From an uncultured Eubacteriales bacterium (GTDB lineage: Bacteria; Bacillota; Clostridia; Lachnospirales; Lachnospiraceae): a stretch of DNA of 64,000 bases. The notes below the pieces were generated by a model. That model did not search any database and was not told the DNA's origin. It saw nothing but the letters and a program-made list of their open reading frames with translations. The translations under genes were made by a program, and so were the position numbers. The stretch is taken from positions 66,074-130,073 of the forward strand of contig OMVU01000006.1 in assembly GCA_900314565.1 (NCBI GenBank). The letters are read 5' to 3'. Below, piece after piece: positions 15,550-46,036 of this stretch (position 1 is its first letter; the number at the start of each line of letters is the position of its first letter).

Positions 15550-15552
15550 GCT

Positions 15553-26797: not shown

Positions 26798-26872
26798 GTC
26801 ATATATAGGTTTTCCTGTCAGTCATACAGAGGATTACCGTTCAGATATTTATCAAATATGAGACGGGGACTG

Positions 26873-27613
26873 TCACATCCCCGTCAGCTTGATACGGAAT
26901 TTCGGCCTGTCGCTCCTCCCCTCAAAGAGCCAGGTCCCGTTCTCCGTCAGCCATGTGATCTCGAAATTCTCTCCTGCGCGGATCTCGCTCAGGTATTCCG
27001 CATCGACCGAGACAGGGTGCGATCGCTCATGGACGGAGAAGGGGATCAGGTCGTCCGTCAGATCGAAATAGCCGCAGTTATTGATGTGACCGTTAATGTC
27101 GAGCATGCTGAAAGAGGCGGTGCGCGGGACGGTACGGACCCGCGGATCTCCTGCCTCCGGAAGCCGTTCCCTGATGGTGGCGGGGAGCGGAAGAGCGTGT
27201 CCGGTGTTCATTTCCCCGATTTCGATTCCGTGCTCATCCGGGAAAATGAACCCCCTGCTCTCTGCGTCGATCAGCATCCAGAGCGCGCTGCCTGTGATGA
27301 TGACATCGCCGCCGCTGACGACTTCATAGAAACGCGGGAAGAGGACGTGCATCATCTCTCCCGGCCAGGAACGGATCGTGATCTCCTCATCGTACTCAGG
27401 CATACGCCGGATGTCGACGTGCTGCTTTGTGATGATCCAGAGAAGCCCCCGGTCGAGCGTTTTCTCCCGTCCCATGCCGAGAGCCTCCGTGTGTGCGATG
27501 GAAGCCTCCTGAAAGAATTCGAGCAGAACTGAGAGGCGGAGCCTGCGGCAGCACGTGACATGCTGGCTTCGGATCCGCAGCGTCCGCTCATAGGGCCCGA
27601 TGCTGCCTTCCAT
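26873..27613 (-). CDS. Acyl-ACP thioesterase (FatA/FatB-like double hot-dog)
   Basis: FFQEASIAH, W.I....VDI.RMP and DINGHINNCGY catalytic motif; GGAGG RBS. Confidence 0.88.
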   Translation of the reverse strand: MEGSIGPYERTLRIRSQHVTCCRRLRLSVLLEFFQEASIAHTEALGMGREKTLDRGLLWIITKQHVDIRRMPEYDEEITIRSWPGEMMHVLFPRFYEVVSGGDVIITGSALWMLIDAESRGFIFPDEHGIEIGEMNTGHALPLPATIRERLPEAGDPRVRTVPRTASFSMLDINGHINNCGYFDLTDDLIPFSVHERSHPVSVDAEYLSEIRAGENFEITWLTENGTWLFEGRSDRPKFRIKLTGM

Positions 27614-27625
27614 GTGATCCCTCCG

Positions 27626-27883
27626 TCAGTTTTTCTGATACTTCTCGATCGCGTCGACGACCTGACCGAGTGTCTTCAGCTTGTTCCACTGTCTGTTGGG
27701 GATCTTAACGTTGAACTCGGCTTCGAGCTTGCAGATGACCATGATAAAGCTCATGGAATCCATGGACATATCGGTGTTGACGACGGAAGCCTCCGTCAGC
27801 TCGACGCCCTGAAGCTCAGGGACGCAGTTGTGGATGATCTCTATCGTCTTCGCAGTGATCTCTGCTCTTGATAATTTTGCCAT
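27626..27883 (-). CDS. Acyl carrier protein
   Basis: 85 aa; MDSM phosphopantetheine serine and LEAEFNVKIP..TLGQVVD; GAGGAGA RBS before ATG 27883. Confidence 0.88.
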   Translation of the reverse strand: MAKLSRAEITAKTIEIIHNCVPELQGVELTEASVVNTDMSMDSMSFIMVICKLEAEFNVKIPNRQWNKLKTLGQVVDAIEKYQKN

Positions 27884-28059
27884 TACAGTATCTCTCCTCA
27901 TTATCTTTTTGTTTATCTGAGCGGTGCTGTTCGCATTCCGCGTGCGCTCCATGCGCATGCCGTGCTGCAGACCCCTTGCCCGGCATAAGGCTCATTTCCT
28001 GCCTGCCCGGTCTGCACGGGAAGTTCATTTCCTGCGGGCCGTACGTACCTCGTTGATGA

Positions 28060-29511
28060 TCAGACTGACTCGAACTCCCACCGTCTGATCTTTCCCGTCG
28101 CGGTCCTCGGAAGAGGTGTCTCCGCGTACAGAATGTAGTGAATATGCTGCCCGCGCGCAAGCGACTCGTTGAACTTGTCGAGGACCATGCGGTCGTGCTC
28201 CCTGATCTCTCCGGAATCTTCCTTACGATCCTTCGTCCCGACGACAAGGACCGGGAAGCCGTTCCGCAGGATGAGGGCAAGATCGTCCGTGCCGAGATCC
28301 TGCGCAAGTTTTCCCTCACATTCCGGCCGGTAGATCTTCGTCCCGTCCGAGAGGACGAGCATATCCTTCTTTCGGCCGGTCAGATGCAGATATCCGCGCT
28401 CGTCGAGAAAACCGAGGTCTCCCGTATAGAGCCGGCCGTCGATCGCAGGGTTCGAGACCTTTGCCTGAACGCCCGGTCTCGCCGTGGAAAAATCAATATA
28501 TCCCTTCATGAGACAGGGCGTTTTGACGCTCACTTCCCCGTCTTCCTCGATCCGTATATCCGCATCCGGGCAGGGAGCAAGCGCATAGGGATCCTCGAGG
28601 TCCTGCGTGATCGCGACGCCGCTTGAAGTCTCGGTCAGTCCGTAGCCCAGATAGACTTTAAGACCGGCCGCTTTGAGAGCACCTGTCACCTCCTGAGAGA
28701 GGGGAGCCGCGCCGATGAGGACCACTCTGAGCTCTTTGTTCAGGACCTGCTTGCGGTACAGGATCTCCATGAGCGAGGGGACGGCGGGAAGGATCGTCGG
28801 ATTGAAATATTTACAGTCGTCGAACATGTGGCGGACGCCCCGTCCAAGCGCGATCGCTGCCCCGTAGGCCAGTCCCCAGAGCATCGAGCACACAAAGCCG
28901 AAGACGTGGGAGAGAGGCAGCAGTGAGAGGATCACATCCCCCTCTCCGCAGGGGAGCATGGACTGTCCGGACCATGCGCTGAGACAGAGATTCCGGGTCG
29001 AAAGCACGACTGCCTTGGACTGGCTTGTCGTCCCTGACGTAAAGAAGATCAGGCGGCCTTCCCGTCCTTTCTTCGCGAACGGATCCGGGACTGCACCCGG
29101 GACAGGCTCCGCGTCCGGGTTCGGCGGAGCGGCCGGTATTCCGAGATGACTGCGGACAGCCTGCTCGAGGTCGCTGTCGCTTGCGTAGACGGAATCAGCA
29201 CCGCAGACGGATGCGAGATAAAAAAGCATCTCTTCCGAGAGAGCCTCATCCGTGAGGACCACATCACAGCCGGCACGCGCGCAGGCGAACAGGCGGATGA
29301 CCGTCTCCGGCCTGTGGTCGGTGATCATGAATTCACGCCGGATACCGGCGTCTTTTATTTTCCGGGAGAGCTCGAGGATCTGTTCGTTCAGATAGCTGTA
29401 CGACATTCTGACCGGTTCGTGACCATCGTCACCGCCGCTGTAGATCAGGGCGGGGTGAAAATTGTCTTTCCACGGTTCCATCAGTTCCCGGAAAGTTAAA
29501 TATTTATGCAT
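28060..29511 (-). CDS. AMP-binding (ANL) acyl-CoA/acyl-ACP synthetase
   Basis: FTSGTTSQSKAV, GYGLTET, YTGDLG, GRKKD and TGKIRR motifs. Confidence 0.88.
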   Translation of the reverse strand: MHKYLTFRELMEPWKDNFHPALIYSGGDDGHEPVRMSYSYLNEQILELSRKIKDAGIRREFMITDHRPETVIRLFACARAGCDVVLTDEALSEEMLFYLASVCGADSVYASDSDLEQAVRSHLGIPAAPPNPDAEPVPGAVPDPFAKKGREGRLIFFTSGTTSQSKAVVLSTRNLCLSAWSGQSMLPCGEGDVILSLLPLSHVFGFVCSMLWGLAYGAAIALGRGVRHMFDDCKYFNPTILPAVPSLMEILYRKQVLNKELRVVLIGAAPLSQEVTGALKAAGLKVYLGYGLTETSSGVAITQDLEDPYALAPCPDADIRIEEDGEVSVKTPCLMKGYIDFSTARPGVQAKVSNPAIDGRLYTGDLGFLDERGYLHLTGRKKDMLVLSDGTKIYRPECEGKLAQDLGTDDLALILRNGFPVLVVGTKDRKEDSGEIREHDRMVLDKFNESLARGQHIHYILYAETPLPRTATGKIRRWEFESV

Positions 29512-29556: not shown

Positions 29557-29604
29557 GGAGAGGAAGAGTTTCCAATACTCATATTTATTAAAAATGTGAG
29601 AATG

Positions 29605-29790
29605 ATATATCTCAGTGTGAGATGACCCCCGCCTTTATAGGCGGGGGCAACAAACCATTCTCAGTGGCGGGTGTCAATCCCCCACTGAGATATACGCTCC
29701 GCGAGGATGCGCAGGGATTCGTTTTGGTATTATGTCAGCTGACGCTGACACGAATCCCGCGCCAAGTCTCGCGAGCGAGACTTGAAAAAA
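29605..29790 (+). repeat. Repeat family A (multi-hairpin, ~185 bp) copy 1
   Basis: Near-identical to 51377-51560; five hairpins, ending CAAGTCTCGC-GA-GCGAGACTTG-AAAAAA. Confidence 0.9.
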
Positions 29791-29801
29791 AGGAGCAGAA
29801 A

Positions 29802-31160
29802 ATGGCTAATCTGAACGAAAAAATCTGTATCATCGGCGGTGGTCCGGCAGGCCTTTCCGCGGCCATGTATCTTGAGCAGAAGGGCTATACCAACTACGCG
29901 ATCCTTGAAAAAGAAGATCATGTAGGCGGAAAATGCCACTCCCCGCATTACAACGGAAGAAGATATGAGATGGGCGCGATCATGGGTGTTCCTTCGTACT
30001 ATGCAGTGCATGATGTCGAGGAATTCTGCGGAATTACGCACGACGGACCGAAGCTGAACCGGAACTACAAGAACGGCAAGGGTCAGGTCATTGATCCGTT
30101 CAATCCGAAGAAGAACCCGCTCAAGATCCCGGAGCTCATGAAGATGAAAAAGCAGCTGAAGAAGCTGGGCGAACTCCTTGAGACGAAGTATAAGGGATAC
30201 GACGTCAACGGACACCGCGGCGTAGCGGAAGGACGCTATGACGGCTATGCGGTCACACCGGGCCGTGAGAAAATTTCCGGCGTGAACCCGAACCTGAAGG
30301 ATCTGGCGATGCCGTTCAAGGACTTCTGCGAAATGAACGGCGTTGAGCTCATCCAGAATATCTGGATCGGCCCGTTCACCTCATTCGGTTACGGATATTT
30401 TGATGAGATCCCGGCAGCGTATGTTCTGAAGTATCTTGACTTCCAGACGACCATGAACTTCGTCAAGGTCAATCTGTGGACCTGGAAGGAAGGAACACAG
30501 TACATCTGGGAACAGCTCAACGAGCACCTTGCACATCAGGCGAGACTCAACAGCGACATTACTTCTGTCGAGCGGAAGGACGGAAAGGTCTATGTGACCG
30601 TCAACGGCGAAGTCGAGGAATTCGACAAGGTCATCATCACAGCGCCGCTGCAGTTCATGCCGAAGTATTTCGATGCAACGGAAGAGGAGAAGGAACTCTT
30701 CTCGAAGATCGACTATGAGAGATATGACGTCCTCGCAGTCGAGACAGAGCCCCAGAATCATCCGGAGATCTCCTACTACATTTTCGACAATATGACCCCG
30801 GATCGGTACGGCCACCTGATGGTCTATTATCGCCGCTGGAAAGACGATATCAACCAGGTCATCACGACCTATGCACTGCGCAATCACCGCGGTGACCGCA
30901 GGATCTCAGTGAACGGCTGCCGCCGCAACGTGCTGAAGGACCTTGAGAAGATGGGCAACCCGGCATCTGAGGTCGTCAATGAGAAATCCTGGTACTACTT
31001 CCCGCACGTATTCTCCGAGGATTACGCGGCCGGCTGGTATGACAAGGTCGAGGCTATGCAGGGAACGAACGGAACGTACTATGCAGGCGAGATCATGTCG
31101 TTCGGTGATATGGATGAGACGGCCGAGTATTCCAGAGAACTTGTAGACAGATTCTTCTGA
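29802..31160 (+). CDS. Polyunsaturated fatty acid (linoleate) isomerase homologue, PAI family FAD enzyme
   Basis: AGGAG RBS before ATG 29802; 452 aa. Long near-identical stretches to the recalled C. acnes PAI sequence: HVGGKCHSP.Y.GRRYEMGAIMGVPSY, FGYG.FD..PAAYVLKYLDF, GH.MVYY.RW, WYYFPHV.SEDY.AGWY.KVE.MQG and YAGEIMSFG. Confidence 0.88.
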   Translation: MANLNEKICIIGGGPAGLSAAMYLEQKGYTNYAILEKEDHVGGKCHSPHYNGRRYEMGAIMGVPSYYAVHDVEEFCGITHDGPKLNRNYKNGKGQVIDPFNPKKNPLKIPELMKMKKQLKKLGELLETKYKGYDVNGHRGVAEGRYDGYAVTPGREKISGVNPNLKDLAMPFKDFCEMNGVELIQNIWIGPFTSFGYGYFDEIPAAYVLKYLDFQTTMNFVKVNLWTWKEGTQYIWEQLNEHLAHQARLNSDITSVERKDGKVYVTVNGEVEEFDKVIITAPLQFMPKYFDATEEEKELFSKIDYERYDVLAVETEPQNHPEISYYIFDNMTPDRYGHLMVYYRRWKDDINQVITTYALRNHRGDRRISVNGCRRNVLKDLEKMGNPASEVVNEKSWYYFPHVFSEDYAAGWYDKVEAMQGTNGTYYAGEIMSFGDMDETAEYSRELVDRFF

Positions 31161-31189
31161 TCGGAATAAGACGGCAGATCGTGCCGAAT

Positions 31190-31242
31190 ATGCGGCGGCG
31201 GCCTTCGGGTGCGCCGCCGCTTGTATACGTGAACCTTTTTGT
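31190..31242 (+). terminator. GC-rich hairpin after the PAI-like gene
   Basis: GCGGCGGCG...CGCCGCCGC stem; the T run is displaced by about 14 nt, so termination is uncertain. Confidence 0.4.
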
Positions 31243-31275
31243 GTGTATTATTTACGTGAGATTTTTTAGTAACTA

Positions 31276-31328
31276 AAACTTCACACATGTATTAACATGA
31301 CTGCGACCGGGAATAAATAATTTCCAAA
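31276..31328 (+). repeat. Repeat family B, left-arm fragment
   Basis: ATTAAC(A)TGACTGCGACCGGGAATAAATAATTTCCAAA shared with 5375 and 52394. Confidence 0.85.
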
Positions 31329-31350
31329 CTCACTAAACCTTATTTGCGAG

Positions 31351-32940
31351 GTGAAAAACATGAACTTTTACAAAGACCACTATGATGTCATCATCATGGG
31401 CGCGGGTCTTGCGGGACTCTCCTGTGCGCTGCAGCTGCAGTCGAGAGGAATCAAGGATATCCTGATCCTCGAAAAGCACAACCTGCCCGGCGGCCTCGCC
31501 ACGAGCTATGTCCGGAACGGGATCGAGATCGAGGCTACACTGCATGAGATGATGAGTATCGGAACGAAGGAGGACCGCCTGAAGGTCGGCGCGTTCTTCG
31601 ACGATATGGGTGTCGACATTGACTGGCTGCCCGTACCGGAGGCCTACCGTTTCCTGCAGACGACGGACGGCATCGACATCACCCTGCACGCGGGCTACCG
31701 CAGGATGGCGGATGAGATCGACGCGCAGTTCCCGGGCTGGGGAGACAAAGTCTACGAATTTATGCTGCTCATGAGAAGGGTCTACGACTCCATGAACATC
31801 CTCTCCGTGACGCCGATGAGCAAGCCGGAGATGCTCCTGAAGCACCCGGATTTCGTGAAAACGGTCGGGTACTCCGCGGAACAGGTCATGTCGACCTTTG
31901 AATTCCCGGACGAGATCGAGCAGATCCTCACACCCTACTGGATCTATGTCGGGAATCCGATGAATACCCTTCCCTTTACGATCTACGCATTCCTGATGGC
32001 GGACTACTTCTGCGGAAGCTATGTCGCGCACGGCCTTTCCCACGAGATGAGCATGAAGCTCGAGAAGAAGGCCGAGGAGAACGGAGCGCAGATCGAATTC
32101 CGCCAGGAAGTCGAAAAGATCCTTGTCCATAACGGCAGGGTGACGGGCGTCCGCACGAAGCGCGGCGATGAGATCGCCTGCGACTATGTCGTGAGCGCTG
32201 CCTACCCGAACAAGGTCTACACGCAGATGATCGAACCCCTCTCCGAGGTCCCGGAAGGCGCGATCAAAGCCGTCAATGCGAGAAATCTCAGCGTGTGTCC
32301 GGTCTCCGTCATGATGGTCCTCGACGGATCGCCCGAGGAGCTCGGGATCAGCGATTACAACATTTTCTCCGGCGATACCATGGACACCACGGAGATCTGG
32401 GATAATTATCATACGGCCGGACCGTACACCTATCTCACGTCCATCTGCCTGAACCTTGCAAATCCTGACTGCACGCCGGAGGGCATGTGCCAGTTCTCAA
32501 TCACCGCGCTGCCGCTCGTCGACTCCTTCCTCGACGTGAAGGAGGAGGATTATCCGGCACTCAAGCGAAAACTCGCGGCGGAAATGATCGCAAATTACGA
32601 GAAGAATACCGGCATCAATATCCACGACCACATCGTCGAGATCGAGGTCGAGACGCCGATCACGGTCGCGCATTACGTCGGCGCGTGGAAGGGCAGCATT
32701 TACGGATATGCCCACTGCATGGATGACCACGCGGTCGCCCGCCTCCAGATGAAGGCGGAGGATCATTTTATCAAGGGCCTTGAATTTGCGGGCGCGCACG
32801 GCATGTCCGGAAACGGCATGGGCCCGGCGGTCACCAACGGCCGCGCAGCAGCGAAGGGAATTCTGGAAGCCGAGGCGGCAAAAAACAAAAAGACGCCGGC
32901 TTCCGTCATCAAAAATCTGATCGGAGGTGCCGGAAAATGA
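31351..32940 (+). CDS. CrtI/phytoene desaturase-retinol saturase superfamily FAD oxidoreductase (COG1233)
   Basis: GAGLAGL, EKHNLPGG.ATS, TP.T..HY....KGSIYG and GLEFAGA..MSG.G; GTG 31351 or ATG 31360. Confidence 0.85.
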   Translation: MKNMNFYKDHYDVIIMGAGLAGLSCALQLQSRGIKDILILEKHNLPGGLATSYVRNGIEIEATLHEMMSIGTKEDRLKVGAFFDDMGVDIDWLPVPEAYRFLQTTDGIDITLHAGYRRMADEIDAQFPGWGDKVYEFMLLMRRVYDSMNILSVTPMSKPEMLLKHPDFVKTVGYSAEQVMSTFEFPDEIEQILTPYWIYVGNPMNTLPFTIYAFLMADYFCGSYVAHGLSHEMSMKLEKKAEENGAQIEFRQEVEKILVHNGRVTGVRTKRGDEIACDYVVSAAYPNKVYTQMIEPLSEVPEGAIKAVNARNLSVCPVSVMMVLDGSPEELGISDYNIFSGDTMDTTEIWDNYHTAGPYTYLTSICLNLANPDCTPEGMCQFSITALPLVDSFLDVKEEDYPALKRKLAAEMIANYEKNTGINIHDHIVEIEVETPITVAHYVGAWKGSIYGYAHCMDDHAVARLQMKAEDHFIKGLEFAGAHGMSGNGMGPAVTNGRAAAKGILEAEAAKNKKTPASVIKNLIGGAGK

Positions 32941-34118
32941 AAATAGACAGCTTCCTGAAAGACGTCGGCGGAGCCTCCAGAGTCACGAAGGCGCGCCGCA
33001 TGAGCTATAAGAACGCGAGTGCCATACCGCAGCCGAAGGATCCGATCCGTGAACTCGCTGACCTTCTGCATCCGGATAAGATGCGCTTTGTCGTCACGGA
33101 GGTGAGAGATGCCTCCCCGACCTCGAAGACCTTCCGTCTCGAGTCGGTCGACGGCCATATCCCGGTCTTCCAGTGCGGTCAGTACGTCAATTTCAATCTG
33201 AAGATCGGCGAAAGCGTCCTGAACAGGCCGTATTCCATCTCCTCGGCACCTTTTGAGGCGAGAGGGGAGAAACCCTTCATCGAGGTCACGATCCGGCGGA
33301 ACCGCCCGTATTTCGTGCCGGACTATTTCTTTGAAAATGTAACGGAAGGGACTCTGCTCGACGGCTCGATGCCTTTCGGGACATTTTACTATGAGCCGCT
33401 CAGGGATTCCAAAAATGTCGTCGCCCTCGCAGGCGGCAGCGGCATCACACCGTTCGTCTCGATGGCGAAGGAGATCGCCGCAGGATATCTTGATACGGAC
33501 CTCACGATCCTCTACGGATCCGTTCATCACAGCGATATCGTCTGCGGAGACGAACTTGCCAGGGCTGCAGCGGCCTGCCCGCGCGTCCGCGTCGTCAACG
33601 TAATGTCGGACGATCCGGAGTGGGAAGGCGAGAAGGGCTTTGTCACGAAGGAAATCATTGAGAAGTATTCCGGGGAGGATCCGACCTATATGTTCTGCGG
33701 TCCGCTCCCGATGTACAATTTTGTATCAAAAGTTCTCGGAGAGCTGGGCGTTCCGGTCCGCCGCTTCCGTAAGGATGTCCTCGGACAGCCGGCTGACATC
33801 AGCGCACTGCCCGGATATCCGGCGGAAAGCGTCGGAAAGACGTATCAGATCACGGTCGTCCGCGGTGTGCGCGAGGATGTTATTCCGGCAAGTGCGTCCG
33901 AGCCTGTAGCCGTCGCGCTGGAGAGAGCCGGGATCCCGGTCGACGCCCACTGCAGGGGCGGAGAATGCGGCTTCTGCAGGAGTCAGCTCCTCTCCGGCGA
34001 GATCTTCGTGAATCCGGTCGGGGACGGACGGCGTGCGATGGACAGGGAGATGGGCTGGTTCCATGCCTGCTCCTCCTATCCGCTGACGGACCTGAAAATC
34101 AAGATCCCGATCCTGTGA
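32937..34118 (+). CDS. FNR-type NAD(P)H:flavin reductase with C-terminal [2Fe-2S] ferredoxin
   Basis: RPYSISS (FAD), AGGSGITP (NAD), FCGP and CRGGECGFC..C cluster ligands; ATGA overlap with the upstream gene. Confidence 0.88.
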   Translation: MKIDSFLKDVGGASRVTKARRMSYKNASAIPQPKDPIRELADLLHPDKMRFVVTEVRDASPTSKTFRLESVDGHIPVFQCGQYVNFNLKIGESVLNRPYSISSAPFEARGEKPFIEVTIRRNRPYFVPDYFFENVTEGTLLDGSMPFGTFYYEPLRDSKNVVALAGGSGITPFVSMAKEIAAGYLDTDLTILYGSVHHSDIVCGDELARAAAACPRVRVVNVMSDDPEWEGEKGFVTKEIIEKYSGEDPTYMFCGPLPMYNFVSKVLGELGVPVRRFRKDVLGQPADISALPGYPAESVGKTYQITVVRGVREDVIPASASEPVAVALERAGIPVDAHCRGGECGFCRSQLLSGEIFVNPVGDGRRAMDREMGWFHACSSYPLTDLKIKIPIL

Positions 34119-34338
34119 AGACGGACCCGAGGATCAGAATTCTGATCCTGCGCTGACGGACCTGAGGATCAGACTTTCGATTCTTTAACGTGCTGCGGCA
34201 GCCCCGAGGCTGCCGCAGAGCGCGCAGGACGGAGGATCCTTTCATTTACGGTTCAGAAAAAGACGCCTGCAAAACTCTGTGCGATAGAAGAACAGTGTTT
34301 CGCAGGCGCTCTGTGGCTCAGAAAGGTATGCTTAAGAT

Positions 34339-37164
34339 ATGGTAAAAGATGTAAATCCCATGATTCACGTCAACGAACGTGATTTCCCGGTCACGGATTA
34401 TCACTGTAACGATCCGGAAAAGAAAAAGCTTGTCATGAAGCTCGCGCTCATGATCACGGACAACATTCCGCGGAAGCTCCCGGGAGGAATGAAAGAGAAT
34501 CACATGGACTTCTGGATCCTCGACAGGCTCCTTACCAAAGAGGAAGTCCGCTTTATGCTCAGCTTTAAGAAGAGAAGAGTCGGGCTGACGACACGCGAGC
34601 TCGCGGTCCGCAACAAGATGAGCATGCAGAGAACGCAGAAAATGATCGATCACCTTCTGTGGATCGGCATTCTGGAACAGAACCGTGACAACGCGGATCA
34701 CCATATCCAGTATCTTATCCCGAAATGGGTCGTCGGATCGGGCGAATACATGGTCGAGCACCCGACACTCCCGGACGAGCATCCGGAGGTCGCGACGATG
34801 TTCAACCTCGCGCCGCAGGAGCCGCTGGAGCTTGCGGCCAAGCTCATCCCGCCGGGAGGAGCAGGCATCGGCATGCATGTCATTCCTGTGGAGAAGGCGA
34901 TCCCGGTCGACACGAAGAGCGTTTCCGTGGAGCACCTGTCCCACTGGATTCAGAAATACGACACCTTCTGCAAGATGGTCTGCGCGTGCAGAAAGGCGCA
35001 GAGGATCCGCGGGGAGGGTGTCGGAGACATCGAAGGCTACATGTGTATCGGCTGCGGCGACATCGCGGAGTATCTCGTAACGTCCGGCAAGGACGCGGTG
35101 TACATCACGAAGGAGGAGGTCCTTGAGATCCTCGAGAGGGCAGAGCGCAAGGGCTACGTCCATCAGATCACGAATCTGGACGGACCGAACCGCATCGTCG
35201 GCATCTGCAACTGCTCTCCGGGAAGCTGCTACGGCCTCCGCACATCGCAGCTCTTCAACACGCCGAATATGTCCCGCTCTGCTTACCGCGCCCACGTCGA
35301 TCACACGAAATGCGTGGCCTGCGGCAAGTGCGTCGAGGTATGTCCGGCCGGTGCCGCAAAGCTCGGCCAGAAGCTGTGCCGGGCGGACGGCTCGAAGGTC
35401 GTTTATCCGATGCATGACCTCCCGGATGACAATCCGTGGGGCGAAGATCGCTGGGACAGAGATTATCGTGATCACAATAAGATCAACTGCTACGACGAGG
35501 GAACATCCCCGTGCAAGACGGCTTGTCCTGCCCATCTTGCGGTCCAAGGCTATGTCCGGATGGCTGCCGAAGGCCGCTATCAGGATGCGCTCCGTCTGAT
35601 CCGTCAGGACAATCCGTTCCCGGCAGTATGCGGCGCAGTCTGCAACCGGCGCTGCGAGGACCGCTGCACGAGAGGCCTCGTCGACAAGCCGGTGGCCATC
35701 GACGAGATCAAGAAATTTCTTGCTTACCGTGAGCTGGATGCGGGCGAGCGCTACATCCCGATCTGCGAGAACGGTGACGGAAATCAGTGGGATGACTACA
35801 GGATCGCTGTGATCGGCGCGGGTCCGGCAGGACTCACGGCTGCCTACTATCTGCGGACCGAGGGATACCCTGTCACGGTCTTTGAGCGTGAGGCGCGTCC
35901 GGGCGGCATGCTGATGAACGGCATTCCGAACTTCCGTCTCGACAAGAAGGTCCTTCAGGCTGAGATCGATATCATTGAGAAGATGGGCGTCGAGATCCGC
36001 TGCGGCGTTGAGGTCGGTAAGGACGTGACGATCGGGGAGCTGAGAGAGCAGGGGTACAAGGCATTTTACGTTGCGATCGGTCTGCAGGGCGGCCGCCTGG
36101 CAGGCGTTCCCGGCGAGGACGCAGCGGGCGTGGAGTCCGGCGTGAGCTTCCTGCGCAGAGTCAATCAGGATCATACGATCCGCCTTGACGGTGACGTCGT
36201 GGTCGTCGGCGGCGGAAATGTCGCAGCCGACGTCGCCCGCGCGGCAAAGCGCACGACAGACGGTAAGGTCACAATGCTCTGCCTCGAACAGCGCGATGAG
36301 ATGCCCGCCGCAAAGGATGAGATTGCGGAAGTCCTGGAAGAGAATATTGTGATCATGAACGGCTGGGGCCCGAAGGAAGTCATCGCAGAGGACGGGAAGG
36401 TCACGGCGATCGTCTTTAAGAAATGTGTCTCCGTCTTTGACAGTGAGCATCGCTTCAGCCCGGTCTATGATGAAAATGAAACCATCACAGTTCCCTGCGC
36501 CAATGTGCTCATGGCGATCGGCCAGTCCGCGGAGTGGGGAAATCTGCTCGACGGCACGAAAGTGGAAGTCCGCAGAAACGGTACGGCTGTCGCGGACAGC
36601 GTGACACTGCAGACAGCGGAGCCGGATATCTTCGTCGGCGGAGATATTTATCACGGGGCAAGATTTGCGATCGACGCGATCGCGGAAGGCAAGGAGGGAA
36701 TGGTCTCCATCAACCGCTTTGTCCATCCGGGTCAGTCGCTCACGATCGGAAGGGATCTTCGCCAGTTCATTGAACTTGACCGCGACGATATCCTCATCGA
36801 GTCCTATGACAATGCGGATCGTCAGGCTCCGGGCATGCGTCCGGGCGATCCGGATAAGACATTTGAGGACCTCAGACTTCCGCTCACCGAGGAGCAGGTC
36901 AAAGTCGAGGCAAACAGGTGCTTGAAATGCGGTGCCACCACCGTCGACCTCAATCAGTGCGTCGGCTGCGGCCTGTGCACGACCAGGTGTGAATTCGACG
37001 CGATCCATCTCTCGAGAGATATTCCGGAGGCGAGCGAGATGCATACCGCGGAGGAGATGATGAAGGTCGTCGGTCCGTATGCGGCAAAGCGCGCAGTGAA
37101 GATCATGAAGAAGAAGCTTACGGAGAAGAAGGACGCGAAGAAGGCCGGCACTGAGAAGTCATAA
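34339..37164 (+). CDS. Large Fe-S flavoprotein: 4Fe-4S dicluster + GltD-like pyridine nucleotide-disulfide oxidoreductase + C-terminal ferredoxin
   Basis: CVACGKCVEVCP, PCKTACP..NPFP..CGAVCNRRCE, GAGPAGL, GGGNVAAD, FVGGD, RCLKC and CVGCGLCTTRC. Confidence 0.88.
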   Translation: MVKDVNPMIHVNERDFPVTDYHCNDPEKKKLVMKLALMITDNIPRKLPGGMKENHMDFWILDRLLTKEEVRFMLSFKKRRVGLTTRELAVRNKMSMQRTQKMIDHLLWIGILEQNRDNADHHIQYLIPKWVVGSGEYMVEHPTLPDEHPEVATMFNLAPQEPLELAAKLIPPGGAGIGMHVIPVEKAIPVDTKSVSVEHLSHWIQKYDTFCKMVCACRKAQRIRGEGVGDIEGYMCIGCGDIAEYLVTSGKDAVYITKEEVLEILERAERKGYVHQITNLDGPNRIVGICNCSPGSCYGLRTSQLFNTPNMSRSAYRAHVDHTKCVACGKCVEVCPAGAAKLGQKLCRADGSKVVYPMHDLPDDNPWGEDRWDRDYRDHNKINCYDEGTSPCKTACPAHLAVQGYVRMAAEGRYQDALRLIRQDNPFPAVCGAVCNRRCEDRCTRGLVDKPVAIDEIKKFLAYRELDAGERYIPICENGDGNQWDDYRIAVIGAGPAGLTAAYYLRTEGYPVTVFEREARPGGMLMNGIPNFRLDKKVLQAEIDIIEKMGVEIRCGVEVGKDVTIGELREQGYKAFYVAIGLQGGRLAGVPGEDAAGVESGVSFLRRVNQDHTIRLDGDVVVVGGGNVAADVARAAKRTTDGKVTMLCLEQRDEMPAAKDEIAEVLEENIVIMNGWGPKEVIAEDGKVTAIVFKKCVSVFDSEHRFSPVYDENETITVPCANVLMAIGQSAEWGNLLDGTKVEVRRNGTAVADSVTLQTAEPDIFVGGDIYHGARFAIDAIAEGKEGMVSINRFVHPGQSLTIGRDLRQFIELDRDDILIESYDNADRQAPGMRPGDPDKTFEDLRLPLTEEQVKVEANRCLKCGATTVDLNQCVGCGLCTTRCEFDAIHLSRDIPEASEMHTAEEMMKVVGPYAAKRAVKIMKKKLTEKKDAKKAGTEKS

Positions 37165-37185: not shown

Positions 37186-37265
37186 AAGAACGCCTCAGCG
37201 TTCTTGCCGCGCCGCGCATGGTGCGAAGCACCTTCCACTTTGCGCGGCTGCGATCCGCCGGAGGC
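37186..37265 (+). repeat. Repeat family D (80 bp REP-like) copy
   Basis: AAGAACGCCTCAGCGTTCTTGCCGCGCCGCGCA.GGTGCGAAGCACCTTC...TTTGCGCGGCTGCGATCCGCCGGAGGC; nearly identical to 50263-50342. Confidence 0.9.
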
Positions 37266-37266
37266 G

Positions 37267-37325
37267 TTTATCTCAGTGGCCTTCCCCCGCTTATAGAAGC
37301 GGGGATCTTCCCCACTGAGATAAAT
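37267..37325. repeat. Family-A-related nested hairpin
   Basis: TATCTCAGTGG...CCCCGCTTATAGAAGCGGGG...CCACTGAGATA shares arms with family A. Confidence 0.65.
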
Positions 37326-37386
37326 AACAGCCTCGATCTATCGGATTTTCAGATTGCAGATGTAGTGGGATTTGCATACTGTTATT

Positions 37387-37428: not shown

Positions 37429-37477
37429 ATGTGCTGAAATGAACAGTCTGTTCTTCTGCACTCTGTGCAGCTGGTTC

Positions 37478-38836
37478 TCACTTACTGAACACGTGCCAGA
37501 CGCCGTCTTTCAGCGCGTAGATACAATCATAGGCGCTCTCGATCTTCTCCCATTTATGCTCCAGGATCTGTTTCCCGTCGAAGAGCTCATATGCGCCGTA
37601 CAGTTTAGTGTTTTCATCCCGGGCATAAATCATTCCGGTGCCGAGGCTGCCGATGCTTTTCTTGTCGGTCAGATCCAGTGTCTTACCGGTGTTCAGGATC
37701 AGGTATTTGCCCTTCTCAATATCCTCACACAGCCCGGAGTTCGGAGATCCTTCGATCTTGTCGCTGATTATGTGCCCGTCCGGTGCGATCAGCAGAGTGG
37801 TCTTGCTTCCGGATTGTTCTTTTGCATACAGATATCCTTCACTCAATTCGGAAATCGAGTAATACTTCGGTTCAAAAATCACTTTGCCGGATTTATCTGT
37901 AAGGCCGTAGAGATAGTTTCCGGCCTCATCTTTCAGAGTTGTCTTAAGGAGGCCGTTTCCGATGAGATCAGGTGTATTTTGGTAAGCCGGCTCCACAAGA
38001 ATCTTCCCGTCATATGTCATGACACCGTACAGACCGTTGTCTCCTTTGAAACCAAGAAGGCCGTCCCCGATGATCATCCCTTCCTTTTCGCTCTCCGCGA
38101 CCTGCTTCATAGTATCGTCATAGTAGAAGGTCTTTCCGTCCTTATACGAGTAATAAAAGCCTCTTTTTACCATACCCAGTCTGGATGCATCGTCCGCGAG
38201 CACCTTGCCGGATGCGTCGAGGACACGGGGGGTGTTCTCCCGGTCATTTGCGACATAACTCACACCGCAGACTGCAAACGATTGTTTGGGATCTGTGAAG
38301 ACATAGTCCGTGAGCAGCTTTTCGCCATCCACATCGAACAGCTGCTTTCTGCCTTTAAAAAGAACATCTTTGTCATCAGGAAAGCCGACCGTGAACATAT
38401 CCGCAGAGACGTACATCATGGCCTCGTCCTTGTTATCCGTCTGCTCCTCCCCGAAGATCACCTGGAGGTAGTGCTCGTTTTCCACGTCAATCACACAGAG
38501 GGACCAGGGGATCAGCATCGTTCCGTCAGTATTCACGACACAGCTCTCCGGAACCTCCGCACCCTGGCGGTCAAGCTCCCAGAGATCGCCTGTGAGGTGT
38601 TTGCATCGGGAGAAAAGCAGATCCGGGAATTCCTTTCCGTCCGGATCGCAGAACATCTTCTGTTCGCCTTTATCCTTATATATAAGAGGGGCATTGATGC
38701 CCTCGAATCTCAGATCTCCTCCTGCGTCCTTGATCTGTTTCTCTTCCTTCAGAACGGGCTTCCCGGCAGCGAATACGCTGCTGCTTCCGATGAGCATGGA
38801 GATAATGAGGCCGGCAGCTAGTAATGTTCGTTTCAC
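37478..38836 (-). CDS. Secreted WG-repeat-like (beta-propeller-type) protein
   Basis: GTG 38836 with AAGGAGG; signal peptide; repeats such as NGLYGVMTYDGKILVEPAY and YLYGLTDKSGKVIFEPKY. Confidence 0.7.
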   Translation of the reverse strand: MKRTLLAAGLIISMLIGSSSVFAAGKPVLKEEKQIKDAGGDLRFEGINAPLIYKDKGEQKMFCDPDGKEFPDLLFSRCKHLTGDLWELDRQGAEVPESCVVNTDGTMLIPWSLCVIDVENEHYLQVIFGEEQTDNKDEAMMYVSADMFTVGFPDDKDVLFKGRKQLFDVDGEKLLTDYVFTDPKQSFAVCGVSYVANDRENTPRVLDASGKVLADDASRLGMVKRGFYYSYKDGKTFYYDDTMKQVAESEKEGMIIGDGLLGFKGDNGLYGVMTYDGKILVEPAYQNTPDLIGNGLLKTTLKDEAGNYLYGLTDKSGKVIFEPKYYSISELSEGYLYAKEQSGSKTTLLIAPDGHIISDKIEGSPNSGLCEDIEKGKYLILNTGKTLDLTDKKSIGSLGTGMIYARDENTKLYGAYELFDGKQILEHKWEKIESAYDCIYALKDGVWHVFSK

Positions 38837-43090: not shown

Positions 43091-43293
43091 AAAAATGAGA
43101 GGAAAACAGATTTTTGTTTCTGAATATCCTGCTGAAACAGAATTTCCTGAGGAACAAAAGAAGAATACCAAATGTAAGCGGGACTTTGTTATAATTATAT
43201 AAGAATTATTTCGGATCTTGCTTATGAAAGAGCTGTCCGGATCCTGTCGGTCTCTGCGTTAAGACACTGTCTTCGCAAAGAACCCGCCTTCAT

Positions 43294-43473
43294 GTCCGGA
43301 GACCTGTCCGGAAAATTGTCCGGAGACCTGATCGGAGACTTGATCAGAGACCTGTCCGGAAAATTGTCTGGAGACCTATCCGGAAAATTGTCCGGAGACC
43401 TGATCGGAGACTTGATCAGAGACCTGTCCGGAAAATTGCCCGGCGACCTGTATGGAAAACTGTCTGGAGAGAC
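43294..43473 (+). repeat. 12-bp tandem repeat x15 with a 72-bp higher-order period
   Basis: GTCCGGAGACCT / GTCCGGAAAATT / GATCGGAGACTT units. Confidence 0.9.
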
Positions 43474-43477
43474 GCCT

Positions 43478-46036
43478 ATGGATGCAATCAGTCAAATGAA
43501 AACCTTCTGGCCGGACTGGACCGTCGAAAAGGAAATCGGCGCCGGTGCGTACGGTCATGTTTATAAAGTCAGCCGAAGAGTCGGAGCGAAAACATTCTAT
43601 TCCGCTGTCAAGGTGATCAGGATCCCGCAGAGCGACAGCGAGGTCAAGGCGATCATGGCGGAGGACGGAAGCCACTCGGCGACGAAGGCTCACTTCAGGG
43701 AGCTTGTCGAAGACTGCAAGCGTGAGATCACGATGATGATGGATCTTCGTGGAACAGCCAACGTCGTGGAGGTCGAAGATTTCAAGGTCATCGAGCAGAA
43801 AGACGAGATCCGCTGGGACATCTTCATCCGCATGGAATATCTGACCTGCCTGACGGATGTGATCACGGAGCGCAGGCTCACTGAGAAGGAGGCTGCGAAG
43901 GTCGGCATTGACATCTGCAGCGCGTTGGAACTCTGTGAGGACAATCACATCATTCACAGAGATATCAAGCCGGGTAACATCTTTGTCTCACGATTCGGAA
44001 CATATAAGCTCGGAGATTTCGGAATCGCAAAGCAGCTTGAACGTGGAGCCGGCACGCTCTCCTCACGGGGAACCTACGATTACATGGCGCCGGAAATGTT
44101 CCGCGGCCAGCGCTATGACGCCTCCGTTGACATTTATGCGCTCGGAATCGTGCTCTACAAGCTTCTGAACCGCAACCGCGCGCCGTTCCTGGATCCGAAA
44201 GCGGAGCGCATTTCCTCAAAGGACCGGGAAGATGCACTCGGGAAGAGAATTAACGGCGAAAGTCTGCCTGCCCCCTGTGACGCGTCGGTTTCCATGTCGA
44301 GGGTCATTCTGAAAGCCTGCCGCGCAAAAGCGGCGGATCGCTTCCGCTCGCCCGGGGAAATGAAAGCCCAGCTCGAGAATGTCTTAAATGAAAAGCCGGT
44401 CGTCATAGCACCGGACAGTGTGTATGCCGGAGAAGATGCCGGCCGCACGGATGCCGCGGCAGGACTGTACGTCAGTCAGACAGACGGATATGGCACAAGC
44501 CGGTATGGCCAGGGCACAGGCCAATCCATTCAGGGAACGAGCCGGTACGGCCAGGGCATGGGTCAGTATACACAGGGAACAAGTCAGTCCAGTCAGGGAA
44601 GTGGCCGGTACGGTCAGAGTACGGGTCGGCATACGAAAGGCACAAGCCAGTATGGCCAGGGCACAGGCCAGTATGGCCAGGGCGCAAGTCAATATGATCA
44701 GGGCACAGGCCCGTATACCGAGCAGCTGGCTGATGGCACGATGGGCACGGTCAAAGATCAGGGAAGATATTCCGACGGCAGCGGTCCGGATATATCCTAT
44801 TACGGACGCGGGTCGATTCCGGTCCCGCCTCCGGAAGATACTGTCCCGAACAGATCTGACACTGAAAGGCAGGGAAGCGGATCAGGAGGATCAGGAGGAT
44901 CGGGAGAATCAGGAAAATCGGGAGGATCGGGAGGATCCCGCCGCGGCTTCCCGGTCGCTGCGCTTCTGGCAGGCGTGTTTTTTACGATAGCACTGGCACT
45001 CTTTATCGTATTTGTTGTTCCGATCATGAAAGGAGAGGATGATTCGAAGGCAGAGACTGCCAAAGTGGAGAGCACTGCCGAGGGCACGACCGGGGCGGGA
45101 AAAAGCGTGTCGACTGTGACGGCAGAACCGACCCCGACGGCGTCGACGGCAACGCCGACGAGCACGCCGACCCCGACAGCAGCTACGACAACGCCGACGA
45201 GCACGCCGACTCCGACAGCCGCTCCGACATCGACTCCCACGCCCGTCCCGACGTCAGCGCCGGTGGAGGATGCCCGCGTCATCGACCAGTCTGCGGCCGC
45301 GCCGAGCGGATCGCAGCATTCTGTTGACAATGTTGTCTACATCGCCGACGTCTATGAATATCTGACGCTCCGCGAGGCACCGTCTACGATGGCAAAGGCG
45401 ATCTGCCTTCTGCCGCCGTATACGGAGATGTACATTACAGAATTTACCAATGACACGATGGTCCGCGTCATTACTCTGGGAGATCAGTACGCCGGGTATG
45501 TGAACAGGAACTATATCGTTCCGAAGGGATCTTCGACACAGAGAGCAGGGCGTTCACAGTCTTCACAGCCATCGTCCGGCGCCACGATTTATTATGCCGA
45601 TGTCTATGATTATCTTACGCTCCGAAACGATGCGAGCACGAGCGCCGGAGAGATCGACCGGCTGCTTCCTTTCACGGCTATGTATGTACACGACTGGGCG
45701 AACGGAATGGCCTACGTCACTGTCGTCGACACAGGGCAGCAGGGCTGGGTCAACGCAAGTTACATCACGGACGACCCGAACAACACCGTGAGGGCCGGAA
45801 AATCGCAGTCTTCCTCCGCGACAGGGCACGGCTTCTCCGTCGGGAACTACTGCTTTGCGGATGTCAACGAATACCTCACGCTCCGCGATGCTCCGTCGAC
45901 TTCGGCCGGGGAGATCGCTCGCCTGCCGGATGACACGATGATGGTCATTCTGGAGCTTACAAATGACACGATGATGAAGGTGCAGGTCGTCTCGACCGGC
46001 CAGATAGGCTATGTGAACCGGAATTATGTGAAGTGA
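43478..46036 (+). CDS. Ser/Thr kinase with low-complexity linker, TM, Thr/Pro stalk and three SH3b-like domains
   Basis: IGAGAYG, AVK, HRDIKPGN, DFG and GTYDYMAPE; three ADV.(E/D)YLTLR..(P/A)ST repeats. Start 43478 after GGAGAG; the ORF is open from 43292. Confidence 0.9.
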   Translation: MDAISQMKTFWPDWTVEKEIGAGAYGHVYKVSRRVGAKTFYSAVKVIRIPQSDSEVKAIMAEDGSHSATKAHFRELVEDCKREITMMMDLRGTANVVEVEDFKVIEQKDEIRWDIFIRMEYLTCLTDVITERRLTEKEAAKVGIDICSALELCEDNHIIHRDIKPGNIFVSRFGTYKLGDFGIAKQLERGAGTLSSRGTYDYMAPEMFRGQRYDASVDIYALGIVLYKLLNRNRAPFLDPKAERISSKDREDALGKRINGESLPAPCDASVSMSRVILKACRAKAADRFRSPGEMKAQLENVLNEKPVVIAPDSVYAGEDAGRTDAAAGLYVSQTDGYGTSRYGQGTGQSIQGTSRYGQGMGQYTQGTSQSSQGSGRYGQSTGRHTKGTSQYGQGTGQYGQGASQYDQGTGPYTEQLADGTMGTVKDQGRYSDGSGPDISYYGRGSIPVPPPEDTVPNRSDTERQGSGSGGSGGSGESGKSGGSGGSRRGFPVAALLAGVFFTIALALFIVFVVPIMKGEDDSKAETAKVESTAEGTTGAGKSVSTVTAEPTPTASTATPTSTPTPTAATTTPTSTPTPTAAPTSTPTPVPTSAPVEDARVIDQSAAAPSGSQHSVDNVVYIADVYEYLTLREAPSTMAKAICLLPPYTEMYITEFTNDTMVRVITLGDQYAGYVNRNYIVPKGSSTQRAGRSQSSQPSSGATIYYADVYDYLTLRNDASTSAGEIDRLLPFTAMYVHDWANGMAYVTVVDTGQQGWVNASYITDDPNNTVRAGKSQSSSATGHGFSVGNYCFADVNEYLTLRDAPSTSAGEIARLPDDTMMVILELTNDTMMKVQVVSTGQIGYVNRNYVK

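Follow-up and report, generated by a model that had tools for sequence, protein, structure and literature searches.

What does a flavoprotein of the carotenoid desaturase (CrtI) superfamily do in an uncultured rumen Clostridium, where every neighbour in its gene cluster is a fatty-acid gene? Rumen biohydrogenation sets the polyunsaturated, conjugated and trans fat that reaches milk and meat, and milk-fat depression is caused by a shift to trans-10 intermediates. Reviews up to 2026 still describe the biohydrogenation reductases as poorly characterized: the isomerases are known, whereas the reductase genes are not. Our analysis of a 64,000-nucleotide stretch of DNA (the window) suggests, at roughly even odds (a probability of about 0.5), that the CrtI-like gene, situated in a conserved PUFA-biohydrogenation cluster of uncultured rumen Clostridia, encodes the flavin-containing catalytic half of a two-component C=C reductase driven by NAD(P)H. 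The searchable literature yielded no account of the cluster or of a CrtI-like CLA reductase. We regard the gene as a real, conserved and testable candidate whose function we infer, and the flavoenzyme as a strong but unproven candidate for one of several long-sought enzymes hydrogenating dietary polyunsaturated fat in cattle.

The open reading frame at 31351..32940 (+), noticed in an earlier sequence-only reading of this DNA, was confirmed. It has more than 1000 homologues at E<=1e-10 and occurs in bovine rumen metatranscriptome assemblies, and on these two grounds we consider the gene real. Translation likely starts at the ATG at 31360 rather than at the GTG at 31351, since a GAGGTG lies 6-11 nt upstream and homologues begin there with MKFYKDHYDV. 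The gene so defined (31360..32940, +) encodes a CrtI-superfamily FAD flavoprotein of 526 aa and 58.3 kDa, for which sequence, fold and synteny together lead us to propose the catalytic role. The FAD motif GAGLAG occupies residues 14-19, the acidic residue closing beta-2 is present (LILEKH, in which E38 does not vary across 36 homologues), and the Pfam families Amino_oxidase and DAO match the protein. Despite an end-to-end alignment with TIGR02734 (crtI_fam; residues 10-513 on positions 1-500 of 504, E 6.5e-36), the score of 124.1 bits falls below the cutoff of 238.1, which places the sequence in the superfamily and outside the curated family. The second-best NCBIfam match, the carotenoid isomerase TIGR02730, reaches 98.5 bits where its cutoff demands 586.9 (E 4e-28). 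Because the protein reaches none of the curated NCBIfam and equivalog cutoffs, no function can be transferred to it from these families. The Foldseek comparison proposed earlier, performed with an AlphaFold model (pLDDT 78.9), recovered the CrtI-type three-domain fold, with the gamma-carotene desaturase 4rep as the best hit (E 1.4e-26, TM 0.73/0.78), followed by 3ka7 and CrtI itself (4dgk).

The genomic setting is not that of carotenoid biosynthesis. Neither SQS_PSY nor polyprenyl-synthase domains were detected by Pfam in the approximately 55 window ORFs scanned, and the same ORFs contain no isoprenoid genes, so the claim that crtB, crtE and other carotenoid genes are missing from the surroundings stands. 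Upstream lies a PAI homologue (29802..31160, +; 452 aa), an FAD-dependent polyunsaturated fatty-acid double-bond isomerase that matches PDB 2b9w with an E-value of 1.8e-143. It aligns over its full length with the Cutibacterium acnes enzyme represented by that structure, from which it differs by an identity of about 50% (BLASTP) and one 26-aa insertion. The residues corresponding to Arg88 and Phe193 are retained; we take these to be the carboxylate-binding positions of the PAI structure paper, in which Arg88 presumably binds the free carboxylate. The predicted reaction is the conversion of linoleate to t10,c12-CLA, the product that accumulates in C. acnes (PMC7339423).

The association between the two genes was evaluated in 30 related genome loci, all from metagenome-assembled genomes of ruminant-gut or gut assemblies, nearly all labeled as rumen or ruminant gut and one belonging to a human-gut series. 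A PAI gene lies directly upstream of the CrtI-like gene, at a distance of 18-333 nt, in 22 of the 25 loci informative for its position, although these synteny counts are skewed to one clade since the locus search returns close relatives only. Look-ups anchored on PAI recover the same cluster, even with homologues that share no more than 54-63% identity with C. acnes PAI, and the arrangement is kept across Lachnospiraceae, Oscillospiraceae and Erysipelotrichaceae. Orthologues thus occur mostly with PAI, the reverse of the pattern that the sequence-only reading had named as fatal to its proposal. Three close relatives (L003, L025 and L026, the last holding a 49% relative) lack an adjacent PAI, and distant pairs of the CrtI-like gene and its downstream partner, such as L039, occur in unrelated contexts, which indicates that nothing intrinsic to this two-gene module makes it a CLA enzyme.

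These exceptions (L025, L026 and L039/L040, where the CrtI-like gene and its partner occur without fatty-acid genes) lend some weight to the idea that the substrate is an isoprenoid of the rumen, or a polyene other than a fatty acid, for instance phytol, a carotenoid or retinoid, or a squalene-like lipid, as with enzymes of the RetSat and CrtI types, and that the proximity to PAI reflects co-regulation instead of successive reactions. Apart from UfaD (PMC7380195), the characterized members of the CrtI family are all known for isoprenoid substrates. The window, however, carries no isoprenoid genes; the six other cluster genes are related to fatty acids or acyl carriers or are linked to PAI, in an arrangement that spans three families, and we consider an isoprenoid substrate quite improbable.

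The statement that the CrtI-like gene directly follows PAI requires a correction: the upstream gene is a true PAI homologue, but 199 nt separate the two, so that PAI is not strictly adjacent. Within this spacer, folding and promoter matching delineate a region (31172..31321, +) with two hairpins, one at 31172-31186 and the other a GC-rich stem at approximately 31191-31224, and a sigma-70-like promoter at 31292-31321 that matches at 10 of 12 positions. The spacer folds with -33.6 kcal/mol (z -3.1), contains no canonical T-run, and its post-PAI hairpin is not called by the terminator scan. The presence of a hairpin and a promoter-like site between the genes counts against our proposal. Nevertheless, we do not regard the two genes as strictly separate units, given that the hairpin is no called terminator and that RNA-derived contigs cross the spacer; such contigs bridge PAI to the CrtI-like gene and also the CrtI-like gene to its partner. 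Rfam returned zero families across the entire window, and the strongly covered intergenic repeats accordingly correspond to no known RNA.

An indication of the direction of catalysis comes from the downstream gene (32937..34118, +), which overlaps the CrtI-like gene by an ATGA at 32937-32940, as had been claimed, and encodes a 393-aa protein of the FAD/NAD(P)H ferredoxin-reductase type that carries a plant-type [2Fe-2S] domain at its C-terminus. All cofactor motifs are present (RPYS at 97-100, GGSGITP at 166-172, and CX4CX2CX29C at 339-378, with Cys 339/344/347/378), and the domain order FAD-NAD-Fe/S (PF00970, PF00175, PF00111) confirms its membership in this architecture. NF007964 aligns residues 50-388 with positions 11-332 of 333 (E 1.4e-31, under its cutoff), and BenC matches as well. 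In every locus containing both genes, down to 38-40% identity, the partner starts between -4 and +14 nt from the stop of the CrtI-like gene. Natural fusions of the two occur in other anaerobes in both domain orders, exemplified by a Syntrophales protein of 918 aa (P0134), and the fused relatives carry the JGI annotation “prolycopene isomerase.” The coupling is therefore much stronger than the window alone revealed.

Characterized FNR/[2Fe-2S] reductases with the architecture of the partner, namely Hcr, BenC and phthalate dioxygenase reductase (PDR), donate electrons. The partner resembles them in its FAD-binding, NAD-binding and plant-type [2Fe-2S] domains and in all motifs, whereas their acceptors are oxygenases or a hybrid-cluster protein; to our knowledge, no CrtI-type flavoprotein has been described as the acceptor of such a reductase. 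The partner is accordingly proposed as a dedicated electron donor, and its coupling in every two-gene locus, together with fusions in both orders, favours a net reductive role for the CrtI-like protein.

Two other directions have to be weighed against the same evidence. In one, the protein would be a redox-neutral isomerase similar to plant CRTISO that, for example, shifts the double bonds of CLA along the chain or alters their geometry, while the partner only keeps the flavin reduced. CRTISO does require reduced FAD, the rumen holds many positional isomers of CLA and 18:1, TIGR02730 is the second-best NCBIfam match, and the JGI label of the fused relatives agrees. We nonetheless judge it improbable: the TIGR02730 score is far from its cutoff (98.5 versus 586.9 bits), the cluster already has an isomerase in PAI, and a 43-kDa reductase with three cofactors, translationally coupled at every locus and fused in both orders, would presumably exceed what flavin priming needs.

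In the other, the protein would be an oxidative desaturase like CrtI or UfaD, converting CLA to conjugated trienes, with the partner passing electrons to NAD(P)+. For a strict anaerobe, thermodynamics disfavours the oxidation of an acyl chain with NAD+ as the electron acceptor, which argues for reduction over oxidation; the oxidizing power of NAD+ does not suffice to desaturate acyl chains, and characterized FNR/[2Fe-2S] proteins with this architecture are donors. Most of the family desaturates its substrates, and UfaD makes a 10,12-diene (PMC7380195), yet the acceptors of CrtI and UfaD are O2 or quinones (UfaD needs O2; PMC7380195) and the hosts of our cluster are strict rumen anaerobes. An oxidative role consequently seems very improbable to us.

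In the reductive mechanism that we prefer, the PAI homologue would convert linoleic (or linolenic) acid to a trans-10,cis-12 conjugated diene. The FAD of the partner would accept a hydride from NAD(P)H and pass single electrons through its [2Fe-2S] center to the FAD of the CrtI-like protein, where reduced flavin and a proton would saturate one conjugated double bond, in the simplest case cis-12, yielding trans-10-18:1. This step would be the formal reverse of the reaction of UfaD, a CrtI-like fatty-acyl desaturase. A ligase, an acyl carrier protein and a thioesterase encoded nearby probably attach the fatty acid to a dedicated carrier and later set the product free, and an IsrA-like protein probably performs the other reductive step. 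The analysis shows the identity of the genes, their cofactor motifs and synteny, the coupling and fusions of the pair, and the occurrence in RNA-derived assemblies, whereas we infer the substrate, direction, regiochemistry and order of steps of this pathway.

The IsrA-like gene (34339..37164, +) follows the partner and had been treated as mere background. Domain matches (PF14691, PF07992 and PF00037) and the cysteine map identify its 941-aa product as an IsrA-like Fe-S flavoprotein and a second candidate C=C reductase. A cysteine cluster spans residues 211-297, CX2CX2CX3C motifs lie at 325-335 and 874-884, and PF14691 and PF07992 cover 384-464 and 487-784, respectively. The IsrA architecture has been described as about 900 aa with an unannotated cysteine-rich N-terminus of about 300 aa and 4Fe-4S motifs near residue 300 and close to the C-terminus (PMC10134865). 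Judged against that published description, the 941-aa protein has the architecture of the IsrA clade, sharing its length class, cysteine-rich N-terminus, two 4Fe-4S motifs, Fer4_20 and Pyr_redox_2 (GltD/NfnB-like), all in the same order. The likeness is one of description, and the neighbourhood differs, since HypA/HypB or IsrA-type ferredoxin genes do not accompany it. Among neighbours of IsrA homologues, oleate hydratase and TetR were noted, with HypA/HypB as the commonest (PMC10134865); no HypA/HypB genes were found in the window ORFs scanned, and four related loci (L035-L038) have a CobW/HypB-family gene at a distance of 5 kb.

IsrA of Acetobacterium wieringae is an isoprene-induced, putative isoprene (conjugated-diene) reductase and the sole candidate reported so far for reducing an unfunctionalized conjugated diene; strains carrying it also reduce 1,3-butadiene, and its authors predicted homologues that hydrogenate other unfunctionalized conjugated C=C bonds (PMC10134865). 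Its architecture thus makes the 941-aa protein a rival, within the cluster itself, for the CLA-reducing step. The CrtI-like protein and its partner would then perform a different step, for instance the reduction of the trans-10 monoene to stearate or of cis-15 in linolenate-derived intermediates. Copies 79-98% identical to the IsrA-like gene lie downstream of the cluster in 10 of the 30 loci, and in other loci further copies or paralogues are found nearby, sometimes upstream or in tandem. However, the invariant neighbour of PAI is the CrtI-like gene, at 18-333 nt, while just about half of the loci have an IsrA-like gene within reach. An isolated disubstituted alkene would presumably also be harder to reduce with flavin alone than a conjugated diene, and the window lacks the HypA/HypB genes. 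Assigning CLA reduction to the IsrA-like protein is, in our opinion, possible but rather unlikely. The proposed reductive role on CLA is upheld in part: net reduction as such has good support, donor coupling included, whereas the IsrA-like rival and the carrier-protein genes described below qualify the claim about CLA.

Three genes on the opposite strand, divergent from PAI, form a ligase/ACP/thioesterase trio that the sequence-only reading overlooked. The first (28060..29511, -) encodes an AMP-dependent ligase of 483 aa (PF00501, E 8e-47), a probable fatty-acid adenylating or ACP-loading enzyme whose NCBIfam matches, long-chain fatty-acid-CoA ligases and MenE, all score under their cutoffs and whose synteny is conserved among related loci. 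The second (27629..27883, -) encodes a dedicated acyl carrier protein of 85 aa with the phosphopantetheine Ser43 in an invariant DSM motif. A single-sequence Pfam scan at E<=1e-5 gave no match for it; the assignment comes from a profile search, in which 15 orthologues match ACP structures with an E-value of 2.8e-12, and from a relaxed scan, in which PF00550 scores 25.4 bits, above its cutoff of 20.8. Precomputed PP-binding matches identify the ACP in PAI-anchored contigs as well. The last member (26873..27613, -) encodes a 246-aa protein of the acyl-ACP thioesterase family (PF01643, E 2.7e-19; PF20791), a gene that keeps its place in 20 of the 30 related loci as well as in PAI-anchored contigs. 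An ORF on the plus strand (26858..27532), considered as a conserved unknown gene, was rejected as the shadow of this antisense thioesterase on the basis of Pfam.

The trio resembles the “CTA” cassette of gut Clostridia (OaaA/OaaACP/OaaC), which makes fatty-acid amides and has been associated, in Lachnospiraceae, with alleviating the toxicity of fatty acids (PMC13310621; bioRxiv 10.64898/2026.03.13.709143). Both combine a free-standing fatty-acid adenylating enzyme with an ACP whose gene is the middle one of a three-gene unit. They differ in the third gene, which in our cluster encodes an acyl-ACP thioesterase (hotdog fold) and in CTA an NRPS condensation domain; this replacement of the condensation protein by a PF01643/PF20791 thioesterase led us to reject the CTA identity.

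The trio suggests that the chemistry may take place on a carrier-protein thioester instead of free CLA. It is left unexplained by a free-acid pathway, yet PAI retains Arg88, and this counts against our main proposal. Either of the two redox enzymes may reduce CLA, and the substrate may be the free acid or ACP-bound. A more elaborate and doubtful possibility, which we put forward tentatively, is that the window represents the genetic basis of an ACP-linked “trans-10” biohydrogenation route of the rumen in uncultured Clostridia: PAI would form t10,c12-CLA, the ligase would tether it to the ACP, the CrtI-like/[2Fe-2S] pair and the IsrA-like protein would successively saturate the diene and the monoene, and the thioesterase would release the product. 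If true, both long-missing reductases would be named, as would the organisms responsible for milk-fat depression brought on by diet.

With two candidate C=C reductases alongside a PAI homologue, the cluster offers genes to clone and markers for milk fatty-acid phenotypes. If our main proposal is correct, a CrtI-type flavoprotein with an FNR/[2Fe-2S] partner would constitute a new two-component type of ene-reductase acting on non-activated alkenes.

Compared with known enzymes, the CrtI-like protein shares with the desaturases CrtI and CrtN (4dgk, 4rep) its full-length sequence and fold, the N-terminal FAD motif and a TPx12GxxYG-type motif. It departs from them in its identity of 15-18% in structural alignments and its score under the family cutoff, as well as in its setting, with no carotenoid genes nearby, an anaerobic host and a dedicated NAD(P)H/[2Fe-2S] partner; we know of no characterized CrtI with such a partner. 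RetSat, a member of the CrtI superfamily whose reaction is the saturation of a single double bond in a conjugated polyene, provides a functional analogy, differing in being a vertebrate enzyme with an isoprenoid substrate; none of our searches returned a RetSat sequence, model or structure. The CLA reductase of Butyrivibrio fibrisolvens, which Hughes (1982) and Fukuda (2007) are said to have described, reportedly converts a conjugated diene to a trans-monoene and has a mass of about 53-60 kDa. This is the activity proposed here, and the mass compares with the 58 kDa of our protein, a likeness limited to activity and size. Finally, UfaD of Rhodobacter is a phytoene-dehydrogenase-like flavoprotein that works on a C18 acyl chain between the monoene and the 10,12-conjugated diene; its reaction is oxidative and requires O2, its substrates are methylated chains bound in phospholipids, and it is described without a reductase partner (PMC7380195). 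Likened by description, it differs from our candidate in the proposed reductive direction and in the presence of a partner, and it sets a precedent for chemistry of the CrtI-like kind on fatty acyl chains with a 10,12-diene (PMC7380195).

The open reading frame reported at 31351..32940 (+) by the sequence-only reading is present in the window, and its likely start is ATG 31360 rather than the first-listed 31351, with a GAGGTG Shine-Dalgarno sequence immediately 5′ and an equivalent methionine serving as the start in 35 homologues. The CrtI-like product (526 aa, 58.3 kDa; GAGLAG at residues 14-19) matches Pfam Amino_oxidase/DAO and aligns end to end with NCBIfam TIGR02734, "phytoene desaturase family" (E 6.5e-36), scoring 124 bits, under the cutoff of 238 bits. 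It falls far short of every NCBIfam equivalog cutoff, that of CrtD included. The nearest solved structures by sequence are gamma-carotene desaturase (4rep) and CrtI (4dgk), and the AlphaFold2 model (pLDDT 78.9) best matches 4rep (E 1.4e-26, TM 0.73/0.78), followed by 3ka7 and 4dgk. On this evidence the protein is a divergent CrtI-superfamily flavoprotein, and the proposed structural comparison with CrtI places 4rep first and 4dgk further down. A long antisense ORF (31333-32412, -, 359 aa) was rejected as a shadow of the real gene. Pfam scans of about 55 window ORFs found neither phytoene synthase nor prenyl-diphosphate synthase, in agreement with the reported absence of crtB and crtE, and we regard an isoprenoid substrate as quite improbable.

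The reported coupling to the gene of a putative electron donor is borne out. The ATGA overlap with the NAD(P)H/[2Fe-2S] reductase gene (32937..34118, +) is seen in the window, and this partner contains FAD-binding, NAD-binding and plant-type [2Fe-2S] domains with the motifs RPYS, GGSGITP and CX4CX2CX29C. Its start lies -4 nt (ATGA) or at most 14 nt from the CrtI-like stop in all loci with enough downstream sequence except one (L026), and the same tight spacing occurs in L039, a 40%-identical pair without fatty-acid neighbours. An exhaustive representative search with the CrtI-like protein gave 229 clusters at E<1e-30, including fusions of CrtI-like and FAD/NAD/[2Fe-2S] modules in either domain order, such as a 918-aa Syntrophales protein. 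Characterised members of the partner's class take hydride from NAD(P)H and pass single electrons via [2Fe-2S] to a separate catalytic protein; here the obligatory translational coupling and the repeated fusions point to the CrtI-like flavoprotein as this acceptor. To our knowledge, a dedicated FNR/[2Fe-2S] donor is unprecedented for a CrtI-superfamily enzyme. A CRTISO-like isomerase needing reduced FAD would also fit such a donor; the score against the carotenoid isomerase equivalog is 98.5 vs a cutoff of 586.9, and we consider this function unlikely.

A genome-collection scan with the CrtI-like protein recovered 30 loci (49-99% identity), all in metagenome-assembled genomes and nearly all from rumen or ruminant gut, belonging to Lachnospiraceae, Oscillospiraceae, Ruminococcaceae, Erysipelotrichaceae/Solobacterium and unclassified Clostridia. 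Of the 25 loci whose upstream sequence is long enough, 22 have a homologue of PAI, the FAD-dependent linoleate isomerase of Cutibacterium acnes, as the next gene upstream (gap 18-333 nt), whereas L003, L025 and L026 do not; the orthologues therefore do not mostly sit without PAI. A PAI-anchored search recovers the same cluster on contigs of up to 1.9 Mb; PAI homologues sharing only 54-63% identity with the C. acnes enzyme likewise lead to it, there accompanied by genes for TetR and an IsrA-like protein. The search is biased towards close relatives, so the association with PAI is established within this clade rather than family-wide. Pairs lacking PAI occur behind a divergent LysR regulator in a MAG of the human-gut Ruminococcaceae UMGS477 (L025, 71% identical) and after two large unannotated proteins of 427 and 1439 aa (L039/L040, 40% identical), so the two-component module evidently serves further substrates too. 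In one lineage (L031-L038, JGI/ENA contigs), the cluster immediately adjoins an Rnf complex operon that has ApbE, and a CobW/HypB-family gene follows about 5 kb downstream; this adjacency would tie ferredoxin/NADH balance to the putative fatty-acid reductases.

In the window, the upstream gene (29802..31160, +) is a genuine PAI homologue (PDB 2b9w: E 1.8e-143, about 50% identity), whereas strict adjacency does not hold, 199 nt lying between the genes. It carries a single 26-aa insertion relative to C. acnes PAI and keeps the residues aligned with Phe193 and Arg88, the latter being the free-carboxylate-binding arginine of PAI. A 60-codon 5′ extension of its ORF (29622-29801, +) was not taken as real coding sequence. 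The spacer carries a hairpin rich in GC (z -3.1) as well as a sigma-70-like promoter.

The 4.3-kb PAI-to-partner stretch is represented by 54-78% of sampled words in 14 bovine/gut metatranscriptome assemblies from six studies, in which DNA carry-over is possible. Among four rumen runs compared, RNA-derived contigs bridge the spacer (30828-32084 in X2; 31034-31514 in X3), and a 2.4-kb contig (31466-33868 in X1) spans the junction of the CrtI-like and partner genes. PAI has a greater word depth than the genes downstream of it, which is compatible with partial termination at the spacer hairpin, contig depth being a poor measure. Two contig joints skip genes: 29785->31303 (X3, depth 23) runs from just before the PAI start straight into the spacer, omitting all of PAI and resembling the ligase/CrtI-like arrangement of L003, and 34172->36872 (X1, depth 3.5) omits almost the entire IsrA-like gene. 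These joints, whose short sides are only 20-30 nt, suggest co-existing strain variants without one or the other gene.

A dispersed structured repeat (29596-29705, 37255-37335 and 51368-51475) forms nested hairpins, TCTCAGTGG..CCCCCGC-loop-GCGGGG..CCCACTGAGA; of its copies, two are long and almost the same over about 100 nt, and one is short. Its RNA folds have z of -6.3 and -7.8, and no Rfam family matches it. In the stretch compared, the two bins holding copies (29.6k, 37.3k) show many loose contig ends and word depths of 129-1208 in four rumen metatranscriptome assemblies vs about 5-100 for flanking genes. The repeat appears mobile, since a 97%-identical relative (L001) has a copy at a different site, the FNR/IsrA-like spacer (10959-10990). 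A 460-aa ORF at 37439-38821 (+), without Pfam match, is a shadow of a real gene. Unrelated to the CrtI-like finding, the stretches 3143-4723, 10606-16308 and 43292-46036 encode two FHA-domain proteins, two Ser/Thr protein kinases (~900-1000 aa), a PP2C phosphatase, and DUF5702 and DUF6382 proteins, making the neighbourhood rich in signalling genes.

With a probability of about 0.5, we propose that the CrtI-like protein and its partner form a two-component C=C reductase whose substrate is the product of PAI. Electrons would pass from NAD(P)H through FAD and [2Fe-2S] to the FAD of the CrtI-like protein and on to the C=C bond. With PAI upstream, the most economical substrate would be its trans-10,cis-12 conjugated diene or a linolenate-derived triene, and we infer that a conjugated diene is the type of alkene reducible by flavin via an allylic intermediate. 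The family and structural matches would also suit a desaturase; acyl-chain oxidation with NAD+ is thermodynamically implausible in strict anaerobes, so the net direction should be reductive and a desaturase is highly improbable.

Downstream of the partner, a 941-aa protein (34339..37164, +) shares the architecture of IsrA, to whose published description it was matched (PMC10134865), with an unannotated cysteine-rich N-terminal third, CX2CX2CX3C at 325-335 and 874-884, a Fer4_20 domain and a GltD/NfnB-type NAD(P)H/FAD domain. IsrA, a 901-aa oxidoreductase, is isoprene-induced in Acetobacterium wieringae and is proposed to hydrogenate isoprene, a diene that is conjugated and unfunctionalised. 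The same paper predicts hydrogenation of further conjugated C=C bonds by IsrA homologues, and it reports oleate-hydratase and TetR genes among their neighbours (PMC10134865). The IsrA-like protein may be the diene reductase, leaving another reduction to the CrtI-like pair, a reading we rate as less likely. The IsrA-like gene is directly downstream in 10 loci and elsewhere lies upstream or as tandem paralogues. Across different bacterial families the protein keeps 79-98% identity, exceeding the conservation of its neighbours, and its tandem paralogues are frequent (51-65% identity). An antisense ORF (34318-37044, -, 908 aa) is a shadow of the real gene.

Three genes missed by the sequence-only reading diverge from PAI (26873-29511, -) and recur in 20/30 related loci: an AMP-dependent ligase (28060..29511), an 85-aa acyl carrier protein (27629..27883; PP-binding 25.4 bits vs cutoff 20.8; E 2.8e-12 by profile against ACP structures; invariant DSM serine) and an acyl-ACP thioesterase (26873..27613). 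A 224-aa ORF at 26858-27532 (+), without Pfam match, is an opposite-strand shadow; owing to conservation of the real gene, even this ORF had tblastn matches of 30-36% in other loci. A free-acid route leaves this trio unaccounted for; taken at face value, the trio would be a futile cycle of loading and release, unless the acyl chain were altered while on ACP. Most simply, one reduction or both would take place on acyl-ACP and the thioesterase would free the product, although the arginine kept in the PAI homologue is a counterpoint.

Reviews of 2025-2026 and a 2026 rumen metatranscriptome study describe biohydrogenation reductases as still uncharacterised at gene level, and the literature describes the organisms forming trans-10 intermediates as unidentified. 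We found no description of this cluster in the openly searchable literature; a handful of clones would make this long-standing question directly testable. Its ligase and ACP make the trio similar to the "CTA" cassette for fatty-acid amides in gut Lachnospiraceae (OaaA/OaaACP/OaaC), where a condensation protein stands in the place of the thioesterase. UfaD, a phytoene-dehydrogenase-like enzyme, converts a C18 monoene to a 10,12-conjugated diene (PMC7380195), setting a precedent for such chemistry at the same positions of a fatty acyl chain; the reaction proposed here would be the reverse. What appears new is a CrtI-superfamily enzyme that is encoded among fatty-acid genes and has an FNR/[2Fe-2S] donor of its own.
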